Source: Myxococcota bacterium (GTDB lineage: Bacteria; Myxococcota_A; SURF-8). Taken from it: DNA of 64,000 nt. Both the position numbers and the translations under genes were made by a program. Each line of letters opens with the position of its first letter. The first letter of the stretch is position 1. Positions 23,609 to 52,011 of this stretch are shown here, in pieces. Location: positions 2,080,001 to 2,144,000 of the forward strand of contig CAXXQS010000001.1 in the NCBI GenBank assembly GCA_963674735.2, in the 5' to 3' direction. The notes below the pieces were generated by a model. It did no database searches. It saw only the letters and a program-made list of their open reading frames with translations, and had not been told where the DNA came from.

Positions 23609-23610
23609 CA
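23605..23610 (+). promoter_or_regulatory. -35 box of the IS110 circle-junction promoter
   Basis: TTGACA at the right end. On circularisation it lies exactly 17 bp from TATTAT (22452-22457). Confidence 0.8.
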
Positions 23611-23650
23611 CCGATAACAGTCGCTACTCACTACTCACTAATCATCATTC

Positions 23651-23679
23651 CCGTGTTGGAGCGTGTCTCCGACGGGCTC
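23651..23679 (+). repeat. REP-like repeat A, copy 2 (short)
   Basis: CCGTGTTGGAGCGTGTCTCCGACGGGCTC. Confidence 0.78.
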
Positions 23680-23695
23680 TCGCTATGCCCCGTTT

Positions 23696-24622
23696 TTAAT
23701 ATGCTTGATGAGGTTGCCTGGACATGTAAAGGATCACAAAGGACTCCATGGGTAGTTTACCGATATTCACGGCTTTTCCCCCCTTATTGCAGTTCGAATC
23801 AACGCAAAGCGATTTAGGCTCTATTGCACATCCTTCATTTCTTAGGAGAATCTGGAATTTGCAAATTAGAGGTTCGTACCCAAACGTAGAGAAAAAGAAT
23901 TCCGAGGTGTCTTCAGGAAACGCATTATATTTCCAGTAGGCTTTTTCCGAGGTAAAGCCTTCAACAGAGACATTGATCTCGGTGAATCCCATTTCCGTAC
24001 CTCTTACATGCTGAAGGCCGACTCCTTTAGGAATTCTCCAGCAATTGGTATTGTCATCCTGCACGGCAAATGAAAAAAAGACGTGTGGCTCAACATCGAA
24101 GGTGATTTCTGAAAGGTCCTGATTCAAAGGAGTTGCAAAAGGGTTCTGCGTAAAGTGGAGGGAGTTTTCCTTCAATTTATATTCCGCAGGAAAGGGAATT
24201 TTGTAACTCTGACATGTTTCCATCTCATTATTGAGATTATAGCTTGAAGGCAATTCATCCTCATCAATAACCCGAATCAACACTGCACTTTTTTCCGCAA
24301 TCCATACCCCATTTGAGGAGGTGAAATCGACTTTCGGCAATACCCCTTCAAACTTTACTCGTTTGCATCTATGTTGCTGTCCGTTCGAGATCCGAAAGGT
24401 TGCTATATCCGAATAATATGATTGGATATTCACTTTAATCGATACATATGCGCCCTCTGTTAATTCCGAGCTGAACTTCGGACACAGGTCTATCCTTCCT
24501 ACATTAACGGATTTGTTTTGGACTTCGCCCGGTCGTGGATGCCTTCCCCCACACACGATCAACAGAACGACAATCGTAGCCAGAGCGGTAACAATCAACA
24601 ACGTTCGCATAACCAATCTCAT
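23696..24622 (-). CDS. Hypothetical membrane-anchored or secreted Cys-containing protein (AT-rich)
   Basis: N-terminal hydrophobic helix MRLVMRTLLIVTALATIVVLLIVC; starts 5 bp after the stop of the SIR2-like gene. Confidence 0.65.
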   Translation of the reverse strand: MRLVMRTLLIVTALATIVVLLIVCGGRHPRPGEVQNKSVNVGRIDLCPKFSSELTEGAYVSIKVNIQSYYSDIATFRISNGQQHRCKRVKFEGVLPKVDFTSSNGVWIAEKSAVLIRVIDEDELPSSYNLNNEMETCQSYKIPFPAEYKLKENSLHFTQNPFATPLNQDLSEITFDVEPHVFFSFAVQDDNTNCWRIPKGVGLQHVRGTEMGFTEINVSVEGFTSEKAYWKYNAFPEDTSEFFFSTFGYEPLICKFQILLRNEGCAIEPKSLCVDSNCNKGGKAVNIGKLPMESFVILYMSRQPHQAY

Positions 24623-24627
24623 TTCGT

Positions 24628-26271: not shown

Positions 26272-26482
26272 GATACGGCCCCGCACCTATATTTAATACA
26301 ATTTGTCTGGTGATTCTGTTTGCTTGAACTGCATAGCACGTCATAATAGGTATAATCAAGTATTTTGGTGATTTTCTTGATACGATTGATATCTTGGATT
26401 TGGGTGAGATTTTTCTACTTTTTGGGGATGGCTTTGCGCAACATATTGAGCTTTTTTCTGCTAGTCAAATGGTTCCGATCCC

Positions 26483-35516: not shown

Positions 35517-37340
35517 TTACTTGGCGTCTAGCTCGCAAATAGCCGGAAAAGCGAAGCTGCAATATTTGTCGTTCCAGCCACCGTCGAGGTTTTCGCCCAG
35601 GACGACGCAGTTCTGGTTTTGATCGCCGTTGGGCTGGCCGGAGGCCCAAGCGGTGAATCCCAGCGTTTCCCCCGCCGGACCGGTAAACGTCCCGTCCGTT
35701 TCGCGATCGTTGACGCCGATCCACCAGTTTTCCTGCATGATTGCAAAGGCTTGCTCGACCAGAAAATCCTGTTCGGGCTGAGAGGTCGGCAGCGCCAGAT
35801 CACCGCCATGATATTCACAGTAGGCTTTCGCAAATTCCCAACTGCAGGTCGTCTGCGACAGCAAATAGTTTTTGCCGCCGAAGGTACGCGCCTGGGCCGG
35901 ACCGTCCATCGTCTGGCATTTCAACCAGTTCTGGGCGAATTCATGCCGATCCTCAATGAAGGCCTTCATTTCGGCCAGCTTTTGCGTGTGCAGATCCTGG
36001 GTGTAGGGCTTTCGCGTATCCGCCGCCATGTCGTCGGCGATCTGCGCGGCATAGGTGTCGACGCGCGCCTGTAGCGTGTCCACATCGTAATGAAAAAGCA
36101 CCTCGGCAATGACCTCCAGGTAACGGCTGCGCCAGGGATCGTCGGCCAGCAAAGTCAGAATATTCGCGGGCTTGCCGTTGTCGTACCCCACATCATAGGT
36201 GATCAGGTCGGCGCTGACGCTGCCGATTTCGAATGAGTAATCGATATCCCAGGGAATCATCACAATGCCGCGGCTCGGATGATTGTAGATGATCCAGTTC
36301 ATCCCCCCCACGAAATAGCCGTCGTATTGTGGGATGATCGATTCGGCCGCCCATTCGAGGATCACCTCCTCCACATCGAAAGACGCTTCCATCTCGCTGA
36401 CGCTGAGGTCGGAAATGAACAGTTCCAGATCCGATTTATCGGGATCGGATTCGTTGGTTTTTTTCTCGTGCCACTTGTACAGATTGCCTTCATCCTCATC
36501 CCCGAAATTGCGTTCCAGAAACTCCTGGTCCACATGCTCGATATGCGAATAAAAGCCGTAATATTCACCATTTACAACCAAACGCGCGTGATTGACGCAA
36601 GGAGCCGGCACGCCCGTCTCCCGCATGATTTCCATGCCCATCCGCTCGTGCAGCATGGTCTGGTCGTTATGCGGCGCATCGAGGTTGGTTTTGCGAACGC
36701 CGTGAAAACGATGCTTGTCGTTGATTTGCTTGAACGAAATATTGAACTGCATCTTGTCCGGACTCATCGCCCAATTCAGAGGGTTGCCCTTGAGGCGAAT
36801 CATGGCATCGTAAATCACTTCCTCTTGATATTTCAGGTGTCGAACAGGAAAATACGCCGATCGTTCTTCGTCCGAAATATCAAGTGTCTGCCAGTTGGCC
36901 CAGATATTCTCGATCTGCGCCCACACGGCGGAATCCACATCGATCTCGTAGGTGATGATCGGCGTCCGGTAGATATCCGAACAAGCTTTCGGCAGGCTGA
37001 CATCATCCTCCGAGTTTTCGCTTTCATCTGCGTCGCCATCGGGTGAGACATCCCCGTCGGGCGGCGTATCCCCATCGGGCGGCGTATCGCCGTCGGACGG
37101 CGTATCGCCATCCGGCAAGACATCCCCATCGGGTGTGTCGGCGAAATCGAACTCATAGGTTTCCTTATCCGTGTCGCCGTCCGGGGCCGGATCGGCATCC
37201 CCGTCGCTAAACGACGTGGACGAATCGGAACAGCCGACAGTGAAAAGCAGGATGCCGGACACGGCCAGCATCGAGAAAAAAACTCGCCACCTAAAACATT
37301 CAGCGGCTATCGTTCGTTCAGTCAACATAACCACACTCAC
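35517..37340 (-). CDS. CotH kinase family lipoprotein with C-terminal C-type lectin domain
   Basis: Lipobox TVGC, PDGD linker, RLKGN, MLHERMG, VNGEYYGFY, IPWDID; C-type lectin WWIGVND...WASGQPN...NC...WNDKYC. Confidence 0.85.
   Translation of the reverse strand: MSVVMLTERTIAAECFRWRVFFSMLAVSGILLFTVGCSDSSTSFSDGDADPAPDGDTDKETYEFDFADTPDGDVLPDGDTPSDGDTPPDGDTPPDGDVSPDGDADESENSEDDVSLPKACSDIYRTPIITYEIDVDSAVWAQIENIWANWQTLDISDEERSAYFPVRHLKYQEEVIYDAMIRLKGNPLNWAMSPDKMQFNISFKQINDKHRFHGVRKTNLDAPHNDQTMLHERMGMEIMRETGVPAPCVNHARLVVNGEYYGFYSHIEHVDQEFLERNFGDEDEGNLYKWHEKKTNESDPDKSDLELFISDLSVSEMEASFDVEEVILEWAAESIIPQYDGYFVGGMNWIIYNHPSRGIVMIPWDIDYSFEIGSVSADLITYDVGYDNGKPANILTLLADDPWRSRYLEVIAEVLFHYDVDTLQARVDTYAAQIADDMAADTRKPYTQDLHTQKLAEMKAFIEDRHEFAQNWLKCQTMDGPAQARTFGGKNYLLSQTTCSWEFAKAYCEYHGGDLALPTSQPEQDFLVEQAFAIMQENWWIGVNDRETDGTFTGPAGETLGFTAWASGQPNGDQNQNCVVLGENLDGGWNDKYCSFAFPAICELDAK
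37030..37140 (-). repeat. 18-bp coding tandem repeat (xxPDGD)
   Basis: TPDGDVLPDGDTPSDGDTPPDGDTPPDGDVSPDGD; boundaries approximate. Confidence 0.8.
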
Positions 37341-38939
37341 TTAGCGGTTCAAATAACTGGACGCGGCTTGCTGGCGGTCTTGCAGATAGCTGCGCACCAC
37401 GTCGACCTCATTCTCCACCTCTTCCACCGTATAGCCACGCTTGGGATCATCGGCGACATACGATTCAAGCGAGCTTTCCAAGTCGTCGATCCAGGCATCC
37501 AGCCCCAGCGCTTGAATACCGCTGACCACAAGTTCGAGTTGGTCCTCATAGCGGGATTGACAGGCCGGGAGTTCCAGGCAGCGCGCAAACAACACACTGG
37601 AACTGACTCCGAAGCTCACTTCCTGCACGAAGGTTTTATCCGTCCCCGCCGGCAACATGGTGAAGAAACCCTGTTTATCGCTATGCAGATAATAGTTGTT
37701 GGCGGCCAGCGTATAGCCATCCGCCTGGCCGATGTAATGTTCCACGGCCATCAGCCGAAGGGCGAGATCCAGATCGATCACGGAACCCACCGCCGCCGCC
37801 CAATCGTCATCCGAACCGGAGTTGATGGTGCTGATTAGAAGAGCCAGGTCGCTGATATCGTCATCATCGCCTTCATCGACCTCGAAATTCTCTTCCTGGC
37901 CGAGATACAGATCCACCATACCCTCATAGACGTGCTCCATGCTCTCGAAGGTGGAATCGGTGTATATATCGTCATAGGGTTCGATAACCGCATAGAGACC
38001 GTAATCTTCGCCGTTGACTCGCACCCAGGCGTATCCGGTTCGAGAAGCGGGAATATCCACCTCACGGAAAATGTAATAGGACAACGCCTCGTGCAGCATG
38101 GAAGTATCGTCCACCATGTTGTTCAAGGTCAGCTTTTTCAGCCCGGCGAAGCGCAGGTTGTCGTCGTATTTGTCGAAACGAATCTTGAACGACGCCTTCT
38201 GATCGATCGGCCGGAACGACAAGCCGCTCTTCAGACGCAGCCCCACCGATAAGGAGCCGGAGCTTTCCCCATCGGCTGTCATGGCAAAATCGGCTTCGGT
38301 ATACTCGTAGGGAGACGTCAACAGGCTCTGATAGGCTTCATCGGTCACCGTCAAGTCGATCTCGTAGACCGCCATCGTGTCGAACACCGACGCGGGCGAA
38401 TCCGCCTGCAAGCGATTCGGCTCTTCCTTGGTGGGATAGGTGGCTTGCCACGAACCGGTCAGGTCGGGATAGCGTCCCCAGCTTTCGCCGTCCTTGAGCT
38501 CTCCGATTTTCACGTAATCCAGAATGGTTCCGGTAGGATCGATCAGGTAAGCGGTATCGCCCGATTTCACTCCGAAGCCGAAGCCCGCTTCATCATCTTC
38601 CTCCTGCTTAACCACCAGATGTCCGCCGGGGGGAATTTCGGCCGGGCCGGGAATCAGATATTGATGGCCCGACTTTTCCAGATCGTCCGCCACGATCCAA
38701 CCCGCCACATCGATCGTGTCTTCAGACGATCGATTGGCCAGTTCCAGCCAATCGCGCCCCTGCACGTCGATCTCATTGAGCACCAGATCCGTCGGGGGAA
38801 TGAATTCTTCGCCGGAGTCCAGATCGCCATCCGGGCTTTCGTTCCCATTATCTCCCGAGCAGGCGGATAGCAGCGAGAAGGCCAGCAGGCTCCCGAGTAA
38901 CAGCAGCCGGAAAAGGCTTGGTTTCATGTTTGATTTCAT
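37341..38939 (-). CDS. Lamin-tail domain + CotH kinase lipoprotein
   Basis: Lipobox LSAC; LTD LVLNEI...DWLELAN...SWGRYPD; CotH GLRLK, KLTLNNMVDDTSMLHE, VNGEDYGLY. Confidence 0.85.
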   Translation of the reverse strand: MKSNMKPSLFRLLLLGSLLAFSLLSACSGDNGNESPDGDLDSGEEFIPPTDLVLNEIDVQGRDWLELANRSSEDTIDVAGWIVADDLEKSGHQYLIPGPAEIPPGGHLVVKQEEDDEAGFGFGVKSGDTAYLIDPTGTILDYVKIGELKDGESWGRYPDLTGSWQATYPTKEEPNRLQADSPASVFDTMAVYEIDLTVTDEAYQSLLTSPYEYTEADFAMTADGESSGSLSVGLRLKSGLSFRPIDQKASFKIRFDKYDDNLRFAGLKKLTLNNMVDDTSMLHEALSYYIFREVDIPASRTGYAWVRVNGEDYGLYAVIEPYDDIYTDSTFESMEHVYEGMVDLYLGQEENFEVDEGDDDDISDLALLISTINSGSDDDWAAAVGSVIDLDLALRLMAVEHYIGQADGYTLAANNYYLHSDKQGFFTMLPAGTDKTFVQEVSFGVSSSVLFARCLELPACQSRYEDQLELVVSGIQALGLDAWIDDLESSLESYVADDPKRGYTVEEVENEVDVVRSYLQDRQQAASSYLNR

Positions 38940-39009
38940 GTGCACTTCCAGATTTTCAACAAAAGATGAATGTTTCGTGCCAGCGCAGCCGTGAATTGTT
39001 AAGGCAGTA

Positions 39010-39780
39010 TTATAGCGCAGGATAATCCCGAGCGCCAGACGTGCCCTCCATAATTCTATCAACTGCATAACAATACTTGGAAAATCCGCGTTGGAGCAAG
39101 CCGAACTGTCGAATCATGTTCAGCATCCATAAGGGGACGCTCTGGGTGGTCTTCACTTCCAGAATCACCGGGGAATCGTCGTTTCTCGTGCTGATGGGAT
39201 CGTCATAATACAACATGGAGTGCTCGTCGGCTTCGAGTTGGGTGGACCCATGCGCCTTTTGGTAACACAAACGACGATCGAAGGTCACACGCCCGTACTC
39301 TTCGATCTCGCTGACGTAGGGTTCCCGGAAATAGCGTACGTGCAGAAGCGGACGCGCCCCGAAAACCCCTAGGATTTCCTCAAAGGTCTCCGGCCGTTCC
39401 TTGCACAGAGTCGGGCCCGGCGGCTGCGGCTCACGTTCGAGAATCGCGGGCCACTGGGCCAGGGGAATCATGTTGCGGCGTTTCCAGATGACGTTGTTGA
39501 ATTTGTGCTTGAGTTCCAACCAACAGAAATCTTCGGCTTTTTTGCCGTAAAAACGCACGCGCGGTTTGACTCGCATGAGCCGACGAAACTTGACATCGTA
39601 ATAAAAGCGCAGATCGGGGGTTTCGAAATAGAGGTTGTTGACCGTATAGCCGCGCGTCTCGGGCGAAGCATGCCGGTCGAGCGAGCAAATCGGCCGAATA
39701 TACTCACGAATTTGTCTGGCGAGAGACTCCGTAATGGTATACTTCAGTTCGTATCGTTGAATGATCTGAATATCGGCCAT
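39010..39780 (-). CDS. VTC domain (polyphosphate polymerase, CYTH/TTM-like) protein
   Basis: RYELKY, YTVNNLYFET, KPRVRFY, LELKHK, RVTFD, ILEVK and FSKY motifs. Confidence 0.9.
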   Translation of the reverse strand: MADIQIIQRYELKYTITESLARQIREYIRPICSLDRHASPETRGYTVNNLYFETPDLRFYYDVKFRRLMRVKPRVRFYGKKAEDFCWLELKHKFNNVIWKRRNMIPLAQWPAILEREPQPPGPTLCKERPETFEEILGVFGARPLLHVRYFREPYVSEIEEYGRVTFDRRLCYQKAHGSTQLEADEHSMLYYDDPISTRNDDSPVILEVKTTQSVPLWMLNMIRQFGLLQRGFSKYCYAVDRIMEGTSGARDYPAL

Positions 39781-39782
39781 GA

Positions 39783-41054
39783 CTAAGGCTGAATGTCCTC
39801 CGGGCCGTCGAGACCCAACGCAAGAGTCAGATCGAAGAGCGCGACGACCAGTTCCTTGCGCTTTTGCGCCTTGATCCGCAACGTCTCGTTGATGGTCAAG
39901 TTCAGTTCCAAGACCTCGTCACGCGGCAAGGTGTCGTGTTGCTTGGCGCTTTCGATGATGGTTTGGGCGTTTCGAACCAGTTCCCCGGCCGTTTCGCAAA
40001 ACATGTTCCAATCGAGCAGGGAATCGCGATAGATGTTATAGCGATTGCGCACCTGCGATTCGATGCGCTCCCGCACCGCATCGACCTGGGTTTCCTTACG
40101 CTCCACCGCTTGCCGCGTAGCCCGGATGTTGCCGAGATTCCAGTTGAATAACGGGAGATCGAATCCCATCATCAACTCGCCGTAATCGTCCTTGTCGTCC
40201 CGAAGATGATAGGAAAGCTGAACATAGCTGAACCAGGGGACATTCTTCAGCCTTTCCAGCGTATACTGCCTTTCGGCCAGATGCCGTCTCGCTTCAACGA
40301 CTTTCACCTCAGGACGATTCTCATAGGCGATACGCGTAAGCGTTTCCAGATCGAGTTCGACGACCGGCACGTCCATTTCCACCAGTTCAACATTCGCCGC
40401 AGCTCCCGTGAGACGCTTTAAGCGCCGCCGGGCACTGGCCTGCCGCTCCTTGGCGCGGGTACGATCGTTAAGCGATTCCGCCGACCACAAGCGCGCCTTG
40501 GTGAAATACACCACGGAGCGCCGTCCCAATTCGACCATCCGCTCGATAATGGCGATGCGCTCGCGTTCCAGTTCGACGCGTTCATTGGCCAAACGGGCCA
40601 GTTCGTCTTCCCGGATGACATCGGCATAGGTTTGAATCACACGCGCGATCAATTCCTGACGCTCGATCTGCTGCGTCAACTGCCGTTCCCACAGCTCGAC
40701 CCGCGCCTGCTGTTTGTCCTCGTCCAACTCTCCGATACGCGGCGGCCGCCAGCGCAAACCGAACTCGATATCATCGAATTCATCGGTAAAGTAGCTTGTT
40801 TTAATGTCGCTGATACGAAATTCCGGATTGCGGATCCAGCCCGCCGAATCCAGCCGCCCTTTGGCGATTTCGACGTTGGCCTCGTTGGCCTCGATCTCGC
40901 GGCTGCGCTCCAGCGCCAGTTCGACGGCCTGCTTCTCGGTCAAAGGCGGACCTGCTTCTGCCTGCGCCGACGCCTGCGCCGTCCAAGCGGCTGCACAACC
41001 GATCGCCAGACTCAGCAGGATTTTCATCAGCGATGGCCCTAATCGGCGTCTCAT
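39783..41054 (-). CDS. TolC family outer-membrane efflux protein
   Basis: Signal peptide, LTEKQAVELALE, AYENRPEV, FDLPLFNWNLG, coiled-coil helices; ATGA overlap at 41054. Confidence 0.82.
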   Translation of the reverse strand: MRRRLGPSLMKILLSLAIGCAAAWTAQASAQAEAGPPLTEKQAVELALERSREIEANEANVEIAKGRLDSAGWIRNPEFRISDIKTSYFTDEFDDIEFGLRWRPPRIGELDEDKQQARVELWERQLTQQIERQELIARVIQTYADVIREDELARLANERVELERERIAIIERMVELGRRSVVYFTKARLWSAESLNDRTRAKERQASARRRLKRLTGAAANVELVEMDVPVVELDLETLTRIAYENRPEVKVVEARRHLAERQYTLERLKNVPWFSYVQLSYHLRDDKDDYGELMMGFDLPLFNWNLGNIRATRQAVERKETQVDAVRERIESQVRNRYNIYRDSLLDWNMFCETAGELVRNAQTIIESAKQHDTLPRDEVLELNLTINETLRIKAQKRKELVVALFDLTLALGLDGPEDIQP

Positions 41055-43120
41055 CGGTTCTCCTGTTCGGTCGAGATCCGAACCATGGACGGAGCGCGTT
41101 GATCCGAATCGAAGACCACGAGCAAGCCGTCCTCGGCGTCGCGGCACACCCCTTCCGGTTTCAGCTTCGGAAACCAGTACAGCGCCTTTTGTTTTTGTTC
41201 CGCTTGGCCGGGTTGGGTGATCATATGGACACCCCCCATTTGCTTGTCCCGCCCGACCCCCGGTGTCGTCGACAACACGATCAGCCGCCCATCCGCATCG
41301 AAAAGGAGGTCGGAAATCCCCGAGTTGCGCCCTTGCGGGTTGCGCAGATCGAAGTCGGCGAACAGCGTCAACTGACCCGGCAGCAGACGTTTGGTTTCGA
41401 ACAAGGCCAACGGATCGTTCAGCCGCCAAACCCGCGCCCCAGCCTCCGACAACGGTTGCTTCAAGCCGAGATAGAGAACGTTGTCGCGATAGGCCGCCCC
41501 TTCGATATTGAGAATTAGTTGCCGGTTGTGATCGTTTTCCCCGAGTCCCAATTGTTGGCGCTGAGCCTCATCGAGCGACGTCATCAGCAGATCGAAGAAA
41601 TTCACCCGTTTTTCCACCGACAAGCTGCGTCCGGAGCGTTTGACCAGCAACAGCGAGCAGCGGTCGTTACGGCGCTTGCCCTTGCGACTACTCGTCTGCG
41701 AACTGAGCAGCAATAGATGCTCGCCATCCACGGCCGTCACGGCCTCCAGGTCGTTGAGGCTCTCCACTCCCGATAACACCAGTGGTTCCGGCTCGATACG
41801 CCCTTCGCGATCCATAAGGAACAGCCAGGGTGCGTGCTCGTTGCGACTCGGATAGCCGGTATCGTCGCTGACGATCAGGTAGCGTTCGATGTCCGCCAGC
41901 CACAGGATTCCGGAGGGCTCGAAGCGGGTGCGCCGGATCAATTCGTCCGGGACTTGCAGCCCGCGTACACGCGGCGTTGTGAGGATCGGTGTACCGGCGG
42001 ATTCCCCCGCACCGGCGTTGGCTGACTTTGCAAGCGGCGGATCGTCGAGCGGGACGCGTTCGCTCGTCAGACGAATGTCCACGGCCTCGCCGGGCAACAG
42101 CCGGTGTCCTTCGTCCAATCGGATCTGAACGCGCCGCGACCAAAACACCTGCCCACGAAATTCAAGCCGCCCGACCATCGGCGAGAAACCGGGATGGAGA
42201 AACATCACGGTTCCCATCGCATCGTAGCCCCCCGAACGTTTCGACAGAACCCGCACGCGCATACCCGTTTCGATCACGGCATCCGACAATTCGGGCAGAT
42301 ACATCTCGACCAGCGAAACCTGACGTTCCTGAACTTCGATGATCGGCAGGAAGGCGTCGACGGTATCGCCGCGCCGTGCCAGAATCTTCACCACGTCGCC
42401 ATCACACGGCGCGATGACGGCCCGCATTTCCATGCGAGCCTCCAGCAACGCAACCATCCGTTCCAACTCATAAACCTGTTGGATACGATTACCAAGCATG
42501 GAGTTCAAAACCGGGTTGTCGGTCCCGGAAAGCGGCCGGAACTGTCCGGGCGACGCTTTTCGGGAGGCGCGGCTCCGCAACTCTCGGCGCAATTCGTCGA
42601 TATAACGCGCCAAGGCATCCCGGCGCACGATCAACCCGCCCAAGTCGGGCGAATGTCCCAGGCCATCTTCTTCGGCACGCTCCCAACGCCCGATCTCGCG
42701 GTTCAAACCTTCCAACTCCACGGATTTGGACCCGAGTTCGGCTTTCAGGACCATCAACGAGGAATTGTCGCTTTCAAGCTGCATGCGCAAGCGCTCATAT
42801 TCCAGCGAGTACCGTTCGCGATCCGCCGTGATGATTGTCTGGAGAACCGCCAGTTCCTCGTTAAGGGCATCACGCTCGGCTTTCAGATCGCTGGAATCGA
42901 GCACGGCGAGCACCTGTCCATGATGGACGCGATCCCCGCTCGCCACATACATCTCGGCAATCAGGCCCGGCTCGCGTGCGCCGACCGTGTGGGAGCGCGT
43001 TTCGACCAGACCGAGAAAGGTGCGGTCCACGTGCCAATTCAAATAGATCCAAACGCCGATGGCCACCGCCACCAGCCATAACACCAATAACCAATTACGT
43101 CGGGAAGGCATCCGAATCAT
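41051..43120 (-). CDS. HlyD-type membrane fusion protein fused to a DUF3616/phytase-like beta-propeller
   Basis: N-terminal TM; lipoyl halves (GLIAEMYVASGDRV; VIAPCDGDVV); coiled coil; C-terminal FEPSG, DLEAV, NIEG and KPEGV blades. Confidence 0.75.
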   Translation of the reverse strand: MIRMPSRRNWLLVLWLVAVAIGVWIYLNWHVDRTFLGLVETRSHTVGAREPGLIAEMYVASGDRVHHGQVLAVLDSSDLKAERDALNEELAVLQTIITADRERYSLEYERLRMQLESDNSSLMVLKAELGSKSVELEGLNREIGRWERAEEDGLGHSPDLGGLIVRRDALARYIDELRRELRSRASRKASPGQFRPLSGTDNPVLNSMLGNRIQQVYELERMVALLEARMEMRAVIAPCDGDVVKILARRGDTVDAFLPIIEVQERQVSLVEMYLPELSDAVIETGMRVRVLSKRSGGYDAMGTVMFLHPGFSPMVGRLEFRGQVFWSRRVQIRLDEGHRLLPGEAVDIRLTSERVPLDDPPLAKSANAGAGESAGTPILTTPRVRGLQVPDELIRRTRFEPSGILWLADIERYLIVSDDTGYPSRNEHAPWLFLMDREGRIEPEPLVLSGVESLNDLEAVTAVDGEHLLLLSSQTSSRKGKRRNDRCSLLLVKRSGRSLSVEKRVNFFDLLMTSLDEAQRQQLGLGENDHNRQLILNIEGAAYRDNVLYLGLKQPLSEAGARVWRLNDPLALFETKRLLPGQLTLFADFDLRNPQGRNSGISDLLFDADGRLIVLSTTPGVGRDKQMGGVHMITQPGQAEQKQKALYWFPKLKPEGVCRDAEDGLLVVFDSDQRAPSMVRISTEQENR

Positions 43121-43797
43121 ACCTCCACCGTGGTTTGTTGGTTCATATACGTCAAGCCCCGCAGGCCTTCCACCGCTTCCAGTTCGCGGATCAGGCGTAT
43201 CCCGTCATCGGGTTTGGCGAGCTTGACCTGGTAGGCATACTCGACCTGTTCGCCCTGGGCGATGCTGCGCATGGTCACCAACGCGAAATGGCGGGGAATG
43301 CGTCCCATGATGGAGACGATCAGCTCGGAGGTCGCCGCTCCCGACGAAGCCTGAAAGCGGATCAGTCCGTCGTGGGGACGCTGAGTACCGAAGGGCGAGT
43401 GATGCATGGCATAGGCGATGACACAGAAAACAATGCAGCCGATGATGGCCGCATCATAGCTCTGCACGCCCGACGCGACCCCCACACCGAAAGCGGCGAA
43501 CAAGAAGATCAAATCGCGTGGATCGCGCAGATTAGTGCGGAAACGAATCACGGCCAGAGAACCGACGATACCGATGCCGCGGGCGACGTTGTCGCCGATG
43601 GCGATCATCAACAGACAGCAGATCATGCTGCCCAGAATCATGGAGTGCAAAAGTCCACGCGACCACGACAAGCCTTGAAACGTCTTTTCGTACACCGTCG
43701 CAACGGCCGTTGACAGAATGAAAGCCAACAAAAACGACAGCAGAACCGAATGCCACTCAAGCTTGATCGATCCGAAACTGAACAGCAGATTTTCCAA
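43117..43797 (-). CDS. DUF4956 membrane protein (MgtC-like)
   Basis: About 4 TM helices, GIVGSLAVIRFRTNLRDPRDL, and a small soluble C-terminal domain. Confidence 0.85.
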   Translation of the reverse strand: MENLLFSFGSIKLEWHSVLLSFLLAFILSTAVATVYEKTFQGLSWSRGLLHSMILGSMICCLLMIAIGDNVARGIGIVGSLAVIRFRTNLRDPRDLIFLFAAFGVGVASGVQSYDAAIIGCIVFCVIAYAMHHSPFGTQRPHDGLIRFQASSGAATSELIVSIMGRIPRHFALVTMRSIAQGEQVEYAYQVKLAKPDDGIRLIRELEAVEGLRGLTYMNQQTTVEV

Positions 43798-44017
43798 AAC
43801 CCACCTCGCTGACCCTGAGGAATCCCCGCTTCCCGCCGTTTACGGGAACCATCGGAAGGTAACGCAGTCGACCTGCGCCTCACAAACGCCAAAATCGAAA
43901 CGACCATCGAAAACCTGAGTTAATTCCGGTCGCTTCATCCATCCATATACTGAGAATAATACCATGAAAGGTGGGTTGTTACAACAACTGAATTGTATGC
44001 AAATGTTCGGATAACAC

Positions 44018-44066: not shown

Positions 44067-47000
44067 CTACTCGGGATAGATGAAGGCCACACCGTTGCTG
44101 TCCGAAGGTTCGAGGGTGACCTGATCGGCATTGCAGGGACCGGTTGCGTAATACATGGTGGCATCGGCCACGTCCGGATGGTCCAACCCGAGCATGTGAC
44201 CGATTTCATGCACCGCGATACCCCGAATGTCGAACTCGTCATAACAACCCGGAGCCAGCGCATCGGCGTGGGTGCAGAAATCGACGGCGTTATTGAAGAC
44301 GATATCCGTATCGACCAGACGCTTGAAGGTAAGGCCGCTGGTCTGCATGGTCTGGCTGTTCCAGATCGGCATGGCCGCCGCCAACACGCCGCTATCGAGA
44401 TCGTTGTCCGGGTCGTCCCAACTGACGGTGTTGTATCCGTCGTAGGTAAAACCTTCGCGCGTGGTACTGCCGCTGTAGGTGAAGGCGAGCGTCGCATCCG
44501 CCACGTCTTCCCACACCTGGAAAGCCGCTTCGACCTCATCGAATTCGGCATCGCCCGCAATGGAATCCTCACCCGACGGATTCATGCTGTAGGGAACCGG
44601 GACATCGGCCGGGAACCACTTCACGGCCGGATCGAGCAGGACGAAGGTGTCGTCACCGATGCTGAAGCTTTCCGGGCCCGCGATGTTGTTGTTCTCGACG
44701 CCCTCGCTCACCAGTTCCGTGGTATCAACCTGGAAATAGGAGGCGTAATTGCCTTGAGCCAACGCGGCACTGTCCAGAGTGAAGCTGTAGTCCTCACCCG
44801 CCGCCAGTCCGAGCAAGGTGCCGGTCCAATTGCTGCTAACCTGTCCGGGACTGGGGGGATTTTCGAGATCCATATAGAGGTCCATACGGAATTCGCTCAG
44901 GACGTCGACCGTCCCCAGGTTACTGACCGTGATGTCGTAGGTCACGTTGGACCCGGCCAGGTTGGCCGTGAATTCGGTGACCGCCAGGTCATAGGTGCCG
45001 CCGTTGAGAATGATGTAAAAGCGATCCGTCCAACTACGCCCGTTGCCGTCCTCGATCACGAGATCGAGGGGATACTGATAGGCGGAAGCTCCGGCTGCAA
45101 TCTGGATGGTGAAGGGATCGGTGGCCGCCTTGCTGCCGCTGGCCGTTACCGAGCCGAAATCGGCCGTGCTGTCCGTCACCGACACATCGCCGTTTGAAGA
45201 TGACAACTCGCCGGTGACGCCGGTCACCGCCAATGCCCCTTCATTCTGGATCGTCACGGTGAGGTTGACCGTGTCGCCGGGATCGATGCCGTCGCCCGAA
45301 TTGTCGATGTGGGAGGCATAGCTCAGCCGCGTGCCTTCACAGCCTTTGGGGAACAGATAGAGCATGGGGGAAACATAGTCGCCCTCGCCGTTCTGCCACC
45401 ACTCCGAGAACCACGAATCGCCGCTGTCGACACTGACCAGACCGTAGTTCAACGACGGTGAAGCCCCGTCGTCTTGGAACGGCAGCATCCAGTCGGTCCC
45501 GCTCTGATCGTCGAGCACCTCGACGGAAATCCAGAAAATCTCACCGATGGGGAAGGTCAACGGCGGATCCACGGTTTGGGTATAGCTGATGATACCGGTG
45601 CCGGATACGCTGCGAGATCCGCTTTCCCACAACACCTCTCCAGGCGCGCCCGCGCCGTGACGATGGACACGGAAGAAGAAGTTGGAGCTGTGCGTGCTGG
45701 TGGCGTTGGTGTAGAATTCGACATCGAATTCATGCAGCGTGAAATCGGCTTCAACCGGATAGGGATTGGCGTACATCGTCCCGACATCGGCTCCGAAAAG
45801 TTTCGCGGTAGCGTAAGTGTCGTCGTAATGGATATAATCCCCACTGATATCGCTATACGGCGCATCGCAGTCGACGGGCGTGGCATGCACGAAGACTTCC
45901 AGCCACTCGTACCAGATGTTGGTCCCGTCTTCGATCTGCAGAACCAGGTAATAGGAGCCGCCCGCCAGTTCGTCGAAAGTCAACGCAAAGGCTTGATCGG
46001 CCTGCCCGGTGGCACTCACCGCAATCCCCGACACATTCGCCGTATCGTTCCCGAGCGTGATGTCGTCGGTGTTGGACAAAAGCGTGACGACGAGGTCGAG
46101 GCTCGTATCGAAGCCGACATTCTCCAGGGTGACGGTAATAGCCGCGCTGTCACCGGCTTCGTAGATACCGCCGACGTTGTCCGTGCGGCTATGATAGCGG
46201 ATATCCGCCCCTTCACCGCAACCGATGGGATCGATGAACCAACTGGCCGAGAGGGCATACCAGCCCTCTTCGTAGTCGTTGGGGTCAGCCGTCTCGGGCC
46301 AGTAGAGATAACCGTTCCGTTCACTGGCCATGGCGCCGTCGTCGGCAAGCAGCGAGACGTAGTCCGCGCTATCGGTTTGGTCGTCTTCGTACACGAATCC
46401 CAGCCAGTAATAATCGGCGTTTTTCAATGCGACCGCCTGCTGGAAGTCGAAACGCACTTTCGACGGATAGAAGGCCGTGACCGCCTGCGAATCGGATTGC
46501 GCCAGCAACTCGCCCGGCCCGCCGTCCTCGTCGCGATAAAGCACGGCATGGAAATTACCACTGCCCACATCGCCTGAATCCTGCAACCAAACGGCCTCGA
46601 CGGCGAACAGGTTGACGCTGGCGGGAGTGACCATGTAACGGTTGAGCGCCAGAGCTCCGGCCGGCATGAGATAGGTTGTGTACGGAGTTCCGTAGCTTTG
46701 GGTCTGATAGGTTTCGTCCGTGCAGACCGCGCAGCCTTCGTCGATGCCGTACAGGCAGTTGTTGTCCTTGCCGTCGCACCATTCCACGTGCCCCGGATAG
46801 ACTTCGTCGTCTTCGTCCTGGCAATCGTTGCCGCCGCAAACCACGTCCACGTAGGTATCCTGATCAACATCTTTCGGTTCGCCCACGCACACGCCGCCCT
46901 GGCAGGCGTCGTTGAGGGTGCAGGTGTCGTCTTCGTCCTGACAGGCGGTATCGTCCGGCTTGTTGGTCGCTTCGCAGGCACCGGATACGCTGTTGCAGGT

Positions 47001-49352
47001 TACCGCCGCCTCGCATTGTTCGGGATCGCGACAGACGACCGGGTCGGAGCCATCGCACTGACCGCTCTGGCATTCGTCGTGCTGGGTGCAGGCATCCGCG
47101 TCGTCGCAGTCCGTACCGTCGGGTTCGTCGGCATAATCGCAGGTTCCGGTTGTGTCGTTGCAGATTCCGGCCTCCTTGCATTCCGCCGGAGCGGCGCAGA
47201 CCACATCATCGGAGCCGACGCAGTCGCCGGTAGCGCACTCGTCGGTTTGCGTGCAGGCATTGCCGTCGTTGCAATCGGTGCCATCCGCTTTGTTGACGGC
47301 ATCGCAGTTGCCGGTGGCCGAATTGCAGGCCACGCTCTGCTCGCACTGGCGCGGCGCAGGACATTGCACCGGATTGCCACCCACGCACTGGCCATTGTCG
47401 CAGGCATCGCTTTGGCTACAGGCATCGCTGTCGTCGCAGGGGTAGCCGTCGCTCTGGTTCTCGTACTCACAGGTGCCGGTTGCGGAATTGCATTCCCCGG
47501 CTTTCTTACACATTTCGGGATCGGCGCAGACAACCGGGTCTTCGCCACGGCAGCTCCCGTTGTAGCATTCATCCACCTGGGTACAGGCATCGCTGTCATC
47601 GCAATCGCTGCCGTTGGCTTTGCTGCGCCAGTGGCTCTGATCGAACACGGTGTCGCAGTATTGGCACTCGTTTCCGGGATTCTCCCAGGCATCTTCCAGG
47701 CACAATCCATCGATGTAGCAGAAATTCGCGATCGGCGGATGGGTGCACGTCCCGGCATCGCAGACATCGTCGGTACAGGCCACCTGGTCGTCGCTGCAAG
47801 CGCCGCCATTGTTTATCGGCAGACAGCCGTCGCAACAAGCGTCGTCGGTTCCGCAGGTGCAGCCATCTCCCAAGCACTGACCGCCCTGGCAGGCGTCATT
47901 GCCGGTATTGGGATTGCCGTCATCGCAAGCGGTGTCGTCATCCTTGTTGGCCACGTCGCACAGGCCGGTTTCTTCATTGCAGGTGATGCTTTCCTGGCAC
48001 TGGTTGGGATCGTCGCATTCCTTGAGATTACCGCCCAGGCACTGCCCCGTGTCGCAGAGGTCGGTCTGCGTACAGGCATTCCCGTCATCGCAGGGCGAAT
48101 CGTCCGCCGCGTCGGCATACTCGCAGAGACCGGACTCGCTATTGCAAACGCCCTCTTGTTTGCAGGCCTCCGGATCGGCGCAAACCACCGGATTTTCGCC
48201 GCGGCACGCTCCGTTGTAACAGGCATCGCTTTGCGTACAGGCATCGTCATCATCGCAGGCCGTGCTGTTGGCTTTGCTGCGCCAGCGGGTTTGTGAAATG
48301 GAGATATCGCAATACTGGCAATCGTTCTGGGGGTTATCCCAGGTATCCTCGTAACACTGACCATCGATGGCACAGAAGCCGCTTTGGGGGGTGTGCACGC
48401 ATATCCCCTCGTCGCAGACATCGTCCGTGCAGCTAAGGCTGTCGCTGGTGCAGGGCGTATCATCCTCCTCGAATGCGAAGAAGCAGACCCCCGTATTCGG
48501 GTTGCACACGCCGTCCTTTTTGCAGACATCCGCAGCCCCGCACACGACCGGGTTGGCGCCGACACAGATGCCGCTTTGGCAGCTATCGCTCTGGGTGCAG
48601 GCATTTTCGTCATCGCAAACCGTGTCATCCGCCACGTCGGCGTAATCGCATACACCCGTATCCGGGTTACAAATCCCCGTTTCCTTGCAGACCGCCGGAT
48701 CGGCGCACACGACCGGGTTGGTGCCGACACAGATGCCGCTCTGGCAACTATCGCTCTGGGTACAGGCATCCGCGTCGTCGCAAACCGTGTCATCCGCCAC
48801 GTCCGCGTAGTCGCACACACCCGTATTCGGGTTACAAATTCCCGCTTCCTTGCAAACGTCCGGATCGGCACAGACAACCGGGTTGGAGCCGATGCACGTG
48901 CCGCTCTGGCAACTATCGCTCTGAGTGCAGGCGTCCGCATCGTCGCAGAGCGTGCCATCGCTGACGTCGTTGTAATCGCAATTGCCCGTTACCGTGTTGT
49001 ACACATCGTCGGTACAGGGATTGCCATCGTCGCAGACGGTATCCACATCGCCGTCCGTATCGCCATCGACATCGCCATCGACATCGCCGTCGGTGGGATC
49101 GTCGCCATCGGCGGGTTTGTCACCGTCGGTGGGTGTGTCGCCATCGGTGGGATCGTCGCCGTCGGTCGGATCATCGCCATCGGTGGGATCGTCGCCGTCG
49201 GCGGGTTTGTCGCCATCGGTGGGGGTGTCGCCGTCCATGGGCAGATCGCCGTCTTCGGCGTTTTCGTCGTCACCACCGCAGGCGGACAGAACGAACAGGG
49301 AAAGAAATAAGACCAACAGCAGCTTGAATGTACTCGTATTCGCGGTTTTCAT
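44067..49352 (-). CDS. Giant surface lipoprotein: DGD repeats, Cys-rich repeats, putative metal-binding motif, CARDB-like domains, C-terminal matrixin (M10) metalloprotease
   Basis: Lipobox LSAC; repeated CDDxDACTQSDxCxxGxC units; DCQDEDDEVYPGHVEWCDGKDNNC; metzincin HEIGHMLGLDH with Met-turn ATMY. Confidence 0.88.
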   Translation of the reverse strand: MKTANTSTFKLLLVLFLSLFVLSACGGDDENAEDGDLPMDGDTPTDGDKPADGDDPTDGDDPTDGDDPTDGDTPTDGDKPADGDDPTDGDVDGDVDGDTDGDVDTVCDDGNPCTDDVYNTVTGNCDYNDVSDGTLCDDADACTQSDSCQSGTCIGSNPVVCADPDVCKEAGICNPNTGVCDYADVADDTVCDDADACTQSDSCQSGICVGTNPVVCADPAVCKETGICNPDTGVCDYADVADDTVCDDENACTQSDSCQSGICVGANPVVCGAADVCKKDGVCNPNTGVCFFAFEEDDTPCTSDSLSCTDDVCDEGICVHTPQSGFCAIDGQCYEDTWDNPQNDCQYCDISISQTRWRSKANSTACDDDDACTQSDACYNGACRGENPVVCADPEACKQEGVCNSESGLCEYADAADDSPCDDGNACTQTDLCDTGQCLGGNLKECDDPNQCQESITCNEETGLCDVANKDDDTACDDGNPNTGNDACQGGQCLGDGCTCGTDDACCDGCLPINNGGACSDDQVACTDDVCDAGTCTHPPIANFCYIDGLCLEDAWENPGNECQYCDTVFDQSHWRSKANGSDCDDSDACTQVDECYNGSCRGEDPVVCADPEMCKKAGECNSATGTCEYENQSDGYPCDDSDACSQSDACDNGQCVGGNPVQCPAPRQCEQSVACNSATGNCDAVNKADGTDCNDGNACTQTDECATGDCVGSDDVVCAAPAECKEAGICNDTTGTCDYADEPDGTDCDDADACTQHDECQSGQCDGSDPVVCRDPEQCEAAVTCNSVSGACEATNKPDDTACQDEDDTCTLNDACQGGVCVGEPKDVDQDTYVDVVCGGNDCQDEDDEVYPGHVEWCDGKDNNCLYGIDEGCAVCTDETYQTQSYGTPYTTYLMPAGALALNRYMVTPASVNLFAVEAVWLQDSGDVGSGNFHAVLYRDEDGGPGELLAQSDSQAVTAFYPSKVRFDFQQAVALKNADYYWLGFVYEDDQTDSADYVSLLADDGAMASERNGYLYWPETADPNDYEEGWYALSASWFIDPIGCGEGADIRYHSRTDNVGGIYEAGDSAAITVTLENVGFDTSLDLVVTLLSNTDDITLGNDTANVSGIAVSATGQADQAFALTFDELAGGSYYLVLQIEDGTNIWYEWLEVFVHATPVDCDAPYSDISGDYIHYDDTYATAKLFGADVGTMYANPYPVEADFTLHEFDVEFYTNATSTHSSNFFFRVHRHGAGAPGEVLWESGSRSVSGTGIISYTQTVDPPLTFPIGEIFWISVEVLDDQSGTDWMLPFQDDGASPSLNYGLVSVDSGDSWFSEWWQNGEGDYVSPMLYLFPKGCEGTRLSYASHIDNSGDGIDPGDTVNLTVTIQNEGALAVTGVTGELSSSNGDVSVTDSTADFGSVTASGSKAATDPFTIQIAAGASAYQYPLDLVIEDGNGRSWTDRFYIILNGGTYDLAVTEFTANLAGSNVTYDITVSNLGTVDVLSEFRMDLYMDLENPPSPGQVSSNWTGTLLGLAAGEDYSFTLDSAALAQGNYASYFQVDTTELVSEGVENNNIAGPESFSIGDDTFVLLDPAVKWFPADVPVPYSMNPSGEDSIAGDAEFDEVEAAFQVWEDVADATLAFTYSGSTTREGFTYDGYNTVSWDDPDNDLDSGVLAAAMPIWNSQTMQTSGLTFKRLVDTDIVFNNAVDFCTHADALAPGCYDEFDIRGIAVHEIGHMLGLDHPDVADATMYYATGPCNADQVTLEPSDSNGVAFIYPE
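46900..49045 (-). repeat. About 44-aa Cys-rich tandem repeats inside the matrixin lipoprotein
   Basis: Near-identical 132-bp units around 48530-48960 (CDDADACTQSDSCQSGICVGTNPVVCADP...), more diverged units further on; boundaries approximate. Confidence 0.85.
49045..49260 (-). repeat. 18-bp and 12-bp DGD repeats (PTDGDD, DGDV)
   Basis: PMDGDTPTDGDKPADGDDPTDGDDPTDGDD...DVDGDVDGDTDGD. Confidence 0.85.
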
Positions 49353-50188: not shown

Positions 50189-51124
50189 TTAATGAGAACG
50201 CACGTCGCCTCTCCCGACATTCCGCTCCGCGTCCGGGTTGATGATCTGCTTGCGCACCCTCGGAAGAATTTTCTCGATGTTTTCCATGTACAAGCGATGG
50301 GCAGTGACATCCCGCGCTTTGCGGTATTGCTTCCAATTGGCCAGAAAACGCGCCGCATCGCCACGGGCGATTTGCACCATCTCGCCCGCCACCGCTTCCG
50401 ATTCGCGCGTCATACGTTCGGCATCGGCCCGCGCTTCGGGAAGACGGCGATTGCGCTCGCCATTGGCTTCCTGCAATAGTTTATGGGCATCTTCCCGCGC
50501 CGAAGCCACATCCTTGAAGGCCCGCGCCACCCCTTGGGGAGGCTCGACCTGCTTGATCTGCATGGAGACGATGCGCAGCCCCAAGTGCAGTTCATCGGTT
50601 TTTTTCTGCACGATCCTGCGCAAGTCCTGCTGAATACGGTTACGAGCGGTGGTCAGGGCGTCTTCAATGAGCATTCCGGCAAAAATCCGCATGCAGGACG
50701 ACTGAATATAGCGTTCGAGCAACGCCACCGGATCTTCCGAAGCGGTGAAATACTCTTTCGGACGCTCGATGGTGTATTGGGTCATCAAGGTCAGCAGGAG
50801 AAGGTTCTCGTCACCGGTTAAAAGCGCCCCGCCGCTCGGGTCTCCGCCCGTGGCGCTCGTGCGATCGAAAGTCAGCGTCAGGCTGCGTACTTCCTTGGTG
50901 TTCGGCACAGTGACACTTTCGATCGGCCAGGGCCAATGGTAATGAATACCCGGCGACACGTCGTCGACGATGATTTCACCGAAACGCTTGACGATACCGG
51001 TCTGTTCCGGTTTGACCGAGTAAATGCCGCTGGCCAGATAGACCAGCAGCAGCAAGAAGACGGCACCCGCCACAATCTTGCGGGTGTTACGAAATATGCG
51101 TTGATTGATGGTTGGTTGGCTCAT
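50189..51124 (-). CDS. hflK: HflK (SPFH) protein
   Basis: SGIYSVKPEQTGIVKRFG, PGIHYHWPWPIE, LTGDEN, VARAFKDVASARED and RLYME motifs. Confidence 0.88.
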   Translation of the reverse strand: MSQPTINQRIFRNTRKIVAGAVFLLLLVYLASGIYSVKPEQTGIVKRFGEIIVDDVSPGIHYHWPWPIESVTVPNTKEVRSLTLTFDRTSATGGDPSGGALLTGDENLLLLTLMTQYTIERPKEYFTASEDPVALLERYIQSSCMRIFAGMLIEDALTTARNRIQQDLRRIVQKKTDELHLGLRIVSMQIKQVEPPQGVARAFKDVASAREDAHKLLQEANGERNRRLPEARADAERMTRESEAVAGEMVQIARGDAARFLANWKQYRKARDVTAHRLYMENIEKILPRVRKQIINPDAERNVGRGDVRSH

Positions 51125-51126
51125 GA

Positions 51127-52011
51127 CTAGCGTCCTTGCGGGGGCGTTTCGAGGTAACGGAACAAGGGAGAATCCGCCGATAAAATCAAGGTCGTGTTCT
51201 CATCCAGCACTTTCTGATAGGCTTCCAAAGTACGGGTGAACTTGAAAAAGCGGGCGTCCTTCGAGAAGGCGTCGGCGTAGATGCGAATCGCGTCCGCCTC
51301 ACCCTTTCCCGTGGTAATCTGCGCGTTTCGATAGGCCTCCGCCAGCAATTCACGCACTTCCTTGTCGGTCTGCGAACGAATCTTGGAAGCCTCTTCCTCG
51401 CCCTCCGCGCGATATTTTTTGGCGATACGCTCACGCTCGGCACGCATACGGTCGTAAACGGAACGCAGGTTCTGGGTGGGGAAGCCCAGTCGCCTGAGTT
51501 GGACGTCCAACAGGTTCACACCGAAATCATTGGCGGCATGTTCCCGCGTTCTCTGAAGAACGGTCTCGGCAATCGCACCGATTTGCGACCCTTCCTCTCC
51601 GGCTGTGAGAAAATCATGCAACGGATGCTCGCCGATGGATATACCCAATTCGGACCCGACCAGGTCGGCGATGCGTTTCTCGGCATTGGACTTGTTGCGC
51701 ACACTCTGAATAAAGCGCTGCGGATCTTCGATTTTCCACAAAATGAAACTGCTGGCCACAACATTTTTCTTGTCGCGGGTGAGGTACTCACTGAGATTGG
51801 AATCCAAGGCCTGCAGGCGTCGATCCAGGCGAATGACGGTTTGCACCGGGTCGGGCCACTTCGCTTGCAGCCCCGCCTCGGTCACCACGCGGGTGGGCCG
51901 GTTGAAGAGCGTGATAATGGCGATTTCCGTTTCGTCCACAACCACCAGGGAGCTGCTGACCAGATAACCGCAAACAACCAGAAAACCGAGTAAAGCCAGG
52001 ATTTTCTTCAT
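51127..52011 (-). CDS. hflC: HflC (SPFH) protein
   Basis: LTRDKKNV, VYDRMRAERERIAKKYRAEGEEEA and FFKFTRTLEAY motifs. Confidence 0.9.
   Translation of the reverse strand: MKKILALLGFLVVCGYLVSSSLVVVDETEIAIITLFNRPTRVVTEAGLQAKWPDPVQTVIRLDRRLQALDSNLSEYLTRDKKNVVASSFILWKIEDPQRFIQSVRNKSNAEKRIADLVGSELGISIGEHPLHDFLTAGEEGSQIGAIAETVLQRTREHAANDFGVNLLDVQLRRLGFPTQNLRSVYDRMRAERERIAKKYRAEGEEEASKIRSQTDKEVRELLAEAYRNAQITTGKGEADAIRIYADAFSKDARFFKFTRTLEAYQKVLDENTTLILSADSPLFRYLETPPQGR

Follow-up and report, generated by a model that had tools for sequence, protein, structure and literature searches.

The stretch of DNA analysed here (hereafter, the window) comprises 64,000 nucleotides of the genome of a Myxococcota bacterium (assembly GCA_963674735.2, contig CAXXQS010000001.1, positions 2,080,001 to 2,144,000) and carries an operon of six genes encoding: (i) a membrane protein of the DUF4956 family; (ii) a periplasmic adaptor fused to a beta-propeller; (iii) a TolC-like outer-membrane duct; (iv) an enzyme of the VTC (triphosphate tunnel) family; and (v) two CotH kinases. 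This module is real, widely conserved and undescribed, and is neither a VTC complex nor a known tripartite pump. It probably supplies kinases beyond the cytoplasm with phosphate-bond energy, carried by polyphosphate (polyP) or perhaps by ATP, and, by analogy, probably works like a VTC complex equipped with parts of tripartite pumps. We regard some form of export through DUF4956 as likely. The more specific reading that we favour, that is, synthase-coupled export of polyP feeding surface phosphotransferases, falls just short of an even chance.

According to this reading, the cytoplasmic VTC enzyme would make polyP from ATP, as its active site suggests, docked on a DUF4956 oligomer whose invariant residues R85 and R87 may form the cytoplasmic entrance. 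By analogy with yeast VTC, polymerisation would take the place of a pump as driving force. The adaptor would span the periplasm and, in the host operon, pass the product to TolC; the propeller, with its putative metal or phosphate site, might speculatively bind or trim the chain. Beyond the membrane, the lipid-anchored CotH kinases, together with exported enzymes akin to them, would use the product directly or via regenerated ATP, direct use of polyP by CotH being the weakest step.

Organization of the operon

The six open reading frames (ORFs) are all on the minus strand: DUF4956 (43117..43797, 226 amino acids; Pfam DUF4956, E 1e-10), adaptor-propeller (41051..43120, 689 amino acids; HlyD_D23, 7e-9, with weak DUF6910, DUF6929 and phytase-like matches), TolC (39783..41054, 423 amino acids; OEP, 2e-22), VTC (39010..39780, 256 amino acids; VTC, 6e-29), CotH1 (37341..38939; CotH, 1e-42, with a lamin-tail domain, LTD) and CotH2 (35517..37340; CotH, 5e-36, with a C-type lectin domain). 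The DUF4956/adaptor and adaptor/TolC junctions are ATGA overlaps, and the following gaps measure 2 bp (TolC-VTC), 70 bp (VTC-CotH1) and 0 bp (CotH1-CotH2). A preliminary description of this DNA had reported precisely this arrangement, together with the absence of any ATP-binding cassette (ABC), resistance-nodulation-division (RND) or major facilitator superfamily (MFS) pump and with DUF4956 as the only polytopic inner-membrane protein; the Pfam scan confirms the absence of a pump and hydropathy the status of DUF4956. The host genome (5.26 Mb, 94% complete), which belongs to the same phylum as Sorangium, encodes one DUF4956, one VTC and three CotH proteins.

Conservation of the layout and search for a pump

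Genes at related loci were called by six-frame profile searches. GTDB yielded 147 adaptor-propeller relatives, and the best 80 loci were retained. A DUF4956 gene was identified at 75 of them, no more than 1.5 kb from the adaptor at 74; the other partners were TolC (69 loci), VTC (63), CotH (38) and a PPDK_N protein (23). The DUF4956-adaptor neighbourhood is, then, not a matter of chance. Since selection on the adaptor was to be avoided, a second sample was centred on DUF4956: 140 loci (80 of the 152 matches in the host phylum and 60 of 137 in three other phyla), chosen by distance from the contig start, some of them shared with the first set and some close kin. An adaptor was found beside DUF4956 or VTC in 85 of these 140 loci, from four phyla.

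Classified with our own profiles according to the putative exit, the 140 loci divide into adaptor plus TolC (40), adaptor alone (45), DUF2490 barrel (10), large membrane-anchored CotH (28), porin (2) and none (15). The adaptor-alone class contains a true adaptor (MacA, E 7.5e-13, 12 rows), and Pfam confirmed DUF2490 in three of the ten members of its class, plus two more inside the "none" class. Four monoderm loci have VTC and DUF4956 with no adaptor or TolC match. In five Sorangium loci (L055, L050, L059, L066 and L068), DUF4956, adaptor, TolC and CotH have no VTC within 10 kb, and each genome encodes VTC elsewhere. The envelope partners would be interchangeable exits. A broader reading, which we hold only tentatively and as somewhat improbable, puts DUF4956 at the centre of a secretion class, so far undescribed, for the export of phosphoanhydride energy, where a triphosphate tunnel metalloenzyme (TTM) polymerase would replace the tripartite pump, CotH and dikinases would run on polyP, and the exit (adaptor-TolC, adaptor alone, DUF2490 barrel or phosphate porin) would set the destination.

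Phosphate-related neighbours are recurrent: Porin_O_P, PHO4 with DUF47, and metallophosphoesterases. At one locus (L125:5377-11340), VTC-DUF4956-adaptor is directly followed by a phosphate-selective porin, a PHO4 transporter and DUF47. Beta-helix proteins of the Cthe_2159 type stand beside VTC-DUF4956 at L166, L169, L208 and L224 (one monoderm, three diderm). Separately, a diderm locus (L116:6292-14844) has pelF/pelG-like genes upstream of VTC-DUF4956 and, after them, a beta-helix protein, an ORF that is porin-like but matches no Pfam family, and an LTD lipoprotein.

The sampled loci preserve the layout without a pump. Across 147 loci, 46 co-oriented polytopic ORFs lie within 5 kb; none of the 31 scanned belongs to an ABC or MFS family, one is an MMPL gene 3.9 kb away, nine have no family, and the others are unrelated and not recurrent across lineages. 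The ABC ATPase motif pair was not found within 4 kb in 162 loci with DUF4956 and adaptor. As for a pump encoded elsewhere, a genome-wide count limited to RND pumps gave seven in the host, all with an adaptor of their own; a partner in trans is possible. Two apparent partners were discarded: the supposed ABC genes downstream of TolC in loci of the L219 type are really a short-chain dehydrogenase and a sugar dehydrogenase, and the AcrB of locus L225 has a TolC of its own, which lies downstream of it, as does a 1159-amino acid propeller gene. Correlations among the DUF4956, VTC and adaptor tree distances (0.79-0.86, 137 loci) were set aside as evidence because neighbouring genes share descent.

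Co-occurrence across genomes

Among 251 genomes of the host phylum, DUF4956 occurs in 129 and VTC in 124: both in 123, DUF4956 alone in six, VTC alone in one and neither in 121. CotH accompanies them in 114 of the 123 genomes with both, versus 23 of the 128 others, and 96 of the 103 genomes with at least two CotH proteins carry DUF4956 and VTC. The polyP kinase PPK1 is distributed independently of the pair (73/123 versus 85/128), and VTC is therefore no simple PPK1 replacement; such a role is unsupported across the host phylum. In a second phylum (that of genome G261; 121 genomes), DUF4956 occurs in 37 genomes and VTC in 21, all 21 with DUF4956, and CotH is found in 34/37 genomes with DUF4956 versus 6/84 others. 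Overall, 137/251 and 40/121 genomes of the two phyla bear CotH. In 14 control genomes, DUF4956 and VTC match only in Bacteroides thetaiotaomicron, Corynebacterium glutamicum and Methanosarcina acetivorans, and CotH in these three and Bacillus subtilis, where CotH acts in the mother-cell cytoplasm. The joint occurrence of DUF4956, VTC and CotH, independent of PPK1, stands in the host phylum; in the second one VTC is often missing. What stays constant is the pairing of DUF4956 with a phosphotransferase that is exported; VTC accompanies them usually, not obligatorily.

The VTC enzyme

The VTC protein stands alone, with neither signal nor membrane helix: PF09359 is its only domain and it has no hydrophobic segment. 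A search of the PDB with the single sequence gave no match, and a 120-row profile matches yeast Vtc4 (3g3q) at E 7e-6. Residues K13, R74, R76, K91, Y150, R152, E208, S234 and K235 align with Vtc4 K200, R264, R266, K281, Y359, R361, E426, S457 and K458, so that 9/9 active-site residues are kept. In the accessible part of the yeast work, these nine are critical for activity and K458 is lost in the inactive Vtc2 and Vtc3 (10.1101/2023.01.27.525886). Across 198 rows from all loci, six of the residues are invariant, among them K235, the K458 equivalent (198/198), and the others are K13 (196), S234 (187) and Y150 (183). The motifs (N-terminal RYELK, later EVK) are nearer to Vtc4 than to the ExExK hydrolases described in PMC9582702, as far as its available text goes, though E11 is retained. 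The enzyme is, on this comparison of residues, intact and Vtc4-like, which supports the earlier claim of polyP synthesis; it is predicted to polymerise polyP. No PPK1 or PPK2 match was found in the 94% complete host genome; VTC could therefore be its only polyP synthase. A PPK1 match is also missing in 7/8 genomes searched of the same family and order.

The DUF4956 membrane protein

The structure model of DUF4956 (mean predicted local distance difference test score, 81) has five helices, followed by an ACT domain at the C-terminus; hydropathy gives four segments over threshold. Residues 84-95 form the motif IRFRTNLRDPRD, in which R85 and R87 are kept in 219/219 aligned rows. In the model, these arginines would lie at the cytoplasmic end of helix 3, provided that the ACT domain is cytoplasmic, a position in keeping with a docking site or with an entrance for anions. 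DUF4956 is a candidate translocase or exporter subunit.

In fold searches, filled by ACT-domain matches that barely covered the membrane part, the ACT domain matched, among others, the MgtC C-domain. An atlas search with the membrane part gave only scores under 0.8, and a profile search gave no match. In the comparison of homologs, 116/120 matched MgtC at E<=1 (best 4.7e-6), and DUF202, the Vtc1-type family, was not among the 25 of 45 families shown. Against PF02308 (MgtC/SapB), DUF4956 scores 17.7 bits, below the curated cut-off of 31.4. The predicted complex of two DUF4956 chains and one VTC scored 0.21 (mark, 0.32) and speaks neither way. As a separate observation, a nine-helix membrane protein of ~310 amino acids lies directly 3' of DUF4956 in six loci of one lineage (including L209:8565-9551); no Pfam family was found in the four scanned, nor any ORF on the opposite strand.

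The adaptor-propeller and TolC

The adaptor consists of one N-terminal membrane helix, an EmrA-like body (about 32-355; EmrA by profile at E 1.7e-26, and also the best fold match) and a fused five-bladed beta-propeller (380-689). The propeller resembles YjiK (Z 21.2; root-mean-square deviation 3.1 over 222 aligned residues), glutaminyl cyclase (18.8) and the human calcium-activated nucleotidase (17.6), and its atlas neighbours are DUF3616, DUF6910, DUF6929 and unnamed clusters. Its invariant acidic and basic residues (E401, D419, D420, D457, E459, R483, R487, E540, K554, E656 and D671; 76 rows) look like a metal/phosphate site. In total, 83 full-length fusions were found. The TolC profile matches CusC (1.5e-23), then MtrE and OprM.

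CotH kinases and exported dikinases

Both CotH proteins are lipoproteins as judged by their lipoboxes, LSAC and TVGC, which were identified by eye. CotH1 combines a lamin-tail domain with the kinase, and CotH2 an Asp/Gly/Pro linker, the kinase and a C-terminal C-type lectin domain. In an alignment to 5JD9, CotH2 keeps both catalytic aspartates, D340 and D365, equivalent to D228 and D251 of B. subtilis CotH, which requires both (10.1101/469122; residue roles second-hand). Counting gaps, the first aspartate is kept in 80 and the second in 57 of 105 aligned rows; a glycine occupies the D251 position in 33/105, with 28/66 in adaptor loci versus 4/27 elsewhere. These Gly-type domains may possibly be adapted to polyP. 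The third CotH of the host genome (L227:403-2529), an LTD-CotH lipoprotein with an intact WDLN motif, adjoins other lipoproteins with Asp-Gly-Asp linkers, away from the operon.

A second type of exported phosphotransferase is dikinase-like, often a lipoprotein, and flanks many myxobacterial loci. It shows a phospho-His-type motif, TPLSH (26/37 rows), followed by PPDK_N, the order seen in glucan water dikinase. Such proteins adjoin DUF4956 at L044:5320-7368, L175:10275-12170 and L178:10320-12221, VTC and CotH being present in some cases and absent in others. In the host genome only weak matches to an exported PPDK-like lipoprotein were found, and it is therefore not part of the host copy.

Relationship with known systems

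With tripartite efflux and type I secretion systems (EmrAB-TolC, MacAB-TolC, HlyBD-TolC and RND), the module shares a membrane-anchored EmrA/MacA-like adaptor and a CusC/OprM-like duct. It differs from them in three respects: an ABC, RND or MFS transporter is neither part of the operon nor a conserved neighbour, the propeller is fused, and TolC is frequently absent. In the secretion of alginate by Alg8/Alg44, export is driven by the polymerase and involves an adaptor-like periplasmic protein, a variable outer-membrane exit and a periplasmic hydrolase. The layout of synthase-dependent polysaccharide secretion, compared here by description only, is in these respects similar to the proposed one; in contrast, the operon has no glycosyltransferase.

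The eukaryotic VTC complex (Vtc4/Vtc3/Vtc1; 3g3q, 7ytj, 8i6v) has a homologous catalytic tunnel domain, with nine active-site residues in common, and in both cases the enzyme gene is associated with a small membrane protein. However, the bacterial enzyme lacks SPX and membrane domains, its catalytic domain is not fused, and the adaptor, TolC and exported kinases are additions. The yeast channel is a 15-helix pentamer of three-helix subunits (PMC9911596, accessible part), in place of which there is here a five-helix MgtC-like protein with ACT. [quoted passage not shown]

The VTC-DUF4956-CotH trio itself is already in print. In the parts of these sources available to us, cotH, a polyphosphate polymerase gene and DUF4956 are accessory genes of Gram-positive pel loci (10.1101/768473), represented in Streptococcus intermedius by SIR_1592-1594 (PMC12345266), tabulated in NELoc-2 of Clostridium perfringens (PMC2879425) and also treated in 10.1101/2024.04.20.589940. 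The likeness lies in the same three contiguous families. The differences are that the trio here is not contiguous with pelDEAFG (no pel family was found among the 24 window ORFs scanned with Pfam, both flanks included), that adaptor-propeller and TolC are inserted, and that the accessible text of PMC12345266 reports the trio from pel loci alone, whereas our samples show it frequently in other surroundings. Neither the adaptor-TolC form nor an export proposal for the trio was found in the literature searched, where subscription journals are mostly uncovered.

Evidence against polyP as the donor

A number of observations weigh against synthase-coupled polyP export feeding surface kinases. Regarding the enzyme, TTM proteins are mostly triphosphate hydrolases that share the basic tunnel residues (PMC9582702, as far as accessible), and polymerase activity accordingly stays a prediction. 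Regarding the path, the preliminary description had cast VTC and DUF4956 as a synthase-translocase and named a continuous cationic channel as the thing to look for: DUF4956 resembles MgtC, with no sign, among the 25 of 45 families shown, of kinship to the Vtc1 channel; and the conserved charges of TolC and adaptor are mixed and both proteins net acidic, so the lining is not supported. TolC is missing in 45/85 adaptor-bearing loci. Regarding the consumers, CotH1 keeps D407 (the D228 equivalent) and has Gly432 in the place of D251. No enzyme with a kinase fold is known to us to take polyP as its donor. For B. subtilis CotH, the donor in vitro is ATP (10.1101/469122, accessible part).

Regarding distribution, some of the genomes counted are kin and hence not independent of one another, which makes the co-occurrence figures too high. 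In the second phylum, a VTC match is missing from 16/37 DUF4956 genomes; CotH is present in 13 of these 16, and several keep DUF4956-adaptor-TolC intact. Both aspartates are kept in 20/20 CotH proteins sampled from DUF4956 genomes lacking VTC, a one-sided comparison by VTC status in that the sample is this set of 20. An intact CotH with DUF4956-adaptor-TolC and no VTC means that the donor need not be VTC-made polyP. In two genomes (G300 and G316), DUF4956 faces a secreted ATP-grasp dikinase (PPDK_N, TPLSH), with neither VTC nor CotH. In S. intermedius, a VTC deletion mutant still aggregated, while deletion of DUF4956 or CotH lowered aggregation by over half in artificial sputum medium; the available text of PMC12345266 reports a reduction for these two only. 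Taken together, the constancy of DUF4956 and an exported phosphotransferase with an optional VTC strengthens the idea of donor supply and weakens that of VTC-made polyP as the donor. From the original proposal of polyP export, the pump-less layout, the VTC site and the co-occurrence survive; a Vtc1-like channel and a cationic lining are not supported, and the genomes without VTC and loci without TolC weaken the proposal.

Alternative explanations

The alternative that fares best, which we nonetheless consider unlikely, is that DUF4956, with adaptor and TolC, exports ATP, another small nucleotide or a phosphoanhydride for the exported kinases. VTC would then be a cytoplasmic partner, usual but dispensable, whose role is either to gate the exporter or to produce a donor that is short or nucleotide-capped, not long polyP. 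This would explain why CotH follows DUF4956 better than VTC in the second phylum and why the S. intermedius reductions involve DUF4956 and CotH (PMC12345266). It also agrees with the nucleotide-binding folds of both consumer classes (CotH and the PPDK_N lipoprotein) and with the likeness of the propeller to, among other folds, a nucleotidase. Nevertheless, VTC is nearly obligate in the host phylum (123/129 DUF4956 genomes), its polymerase-specific lysine (the K458 equivalent) is kept in every aligned row, and nucleotide export has no evident energy source. Moreover, PPK1 is present in 5/5 VTC-less DUF4956 genomes tested, and therefore PPK1-made polyP could be exported there.

It is less probable still that nothing is exported. 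DUF4956 would then be an MgtC-like membrane regulator that senses through its ACT domain, VTC would make polyP or hydrolyse triphosphates in the cytoplasm, and adaptor and TolC would work for a pump encoded elsewhere or form an envelope scaffold. The MgtC likeness and the possibility that VTC is the sole polyP synthase of the host speak for it, as do the loci with adaptor and no TolC and the uncounted ABC and MFS pumps; the S. intermedius authors suggested, in the accessible part of their text, that polyP remains cytoplasmic (10.1101/2024.04.20.589940). Against it, the adaptor recurs beside DUF4956 or VTC in four phyla, the host RND pumps have adaptors of their own, PPK1 is also present in many genomes with DUF4956 and VTC, and the tie to exported kinases is left unexplained.

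Finally, secreted polyP could be a surface polyanion (matrix cross-linker, metal sink or phosphate store) that is bound or broken down, and not used as donor, by CotH, LTD, beta-helix and phosphoesterase proteins, a doubtful option to which the recurrent Cthe_2159, beta-helix, LTD-only and metallophosphoesterase neighbours, the links to pel and glycosyltransferase loci and the Gly-type CotH rows (maybe binding-only domains) lend some weight, but most CotH domains keep the catalytic set and exported dikinases take the place of CotH in some loci.

Other features of the window

A sigma-70-like promoter match (43956..43984, minus strand; consensus only, with four promoter-like sites found and 4.5 expected by chance) lies 5' of DUF4956. 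It comes immediately behind a hairpin (44044-44019) that resembles a terminator and belongs to the upstream gene. This upstream gene (44067-49352, minus strand), which ends 270 bp upstream of the operon with the hairpin in between, encodes a 1761-amino acid lipoprotein that carries a matrixin metalloprotease at its C-terminus, in addition to long repeats rich in Cys and to domains of the choice-of-anchor R-like and CARDB types. Further on, at 50189-53873 (minus strand), there are three SPFH/Band 7 genes in a row, the first of which carries an unusual fused cation-efflux (CDF) domain. At 22673-26286, an IS110 transposase stands beside a low-GC stretch (43% at 24-26 kb) with a SIR2-like gene and an unassigned 333-amino acid ORF, a possible defence island.

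Significance

The periplasm and the cell surface are thought to lack ATP. Exported CotH kinases are nonetheless common, and a donor-export module would solve this puzzle, whichever the donor. The module would also add a fourth type to the inner-membrane partners that serve adaptor-TolC ducts and, if polyP is the cargo, give bacteria a way of placing polyP outside the cell that does not depend on PPK. The extracellular polyP of Bacillus cereus, described in the accessible part of 10.64898/2026.08.04.742738 as a pool without a known enzyme, is an example of the open question and not of this module, since the authors report no VTC4 homolog there. Tractable hosts are at hand, as B. thetaiotaomicron, C. 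glutamicum and M. acetivorans carry DUF4956, VTC and CotH matches. The broader reading of DUF4956, if true, would answer where exported bacterial kinases obtain their donor.

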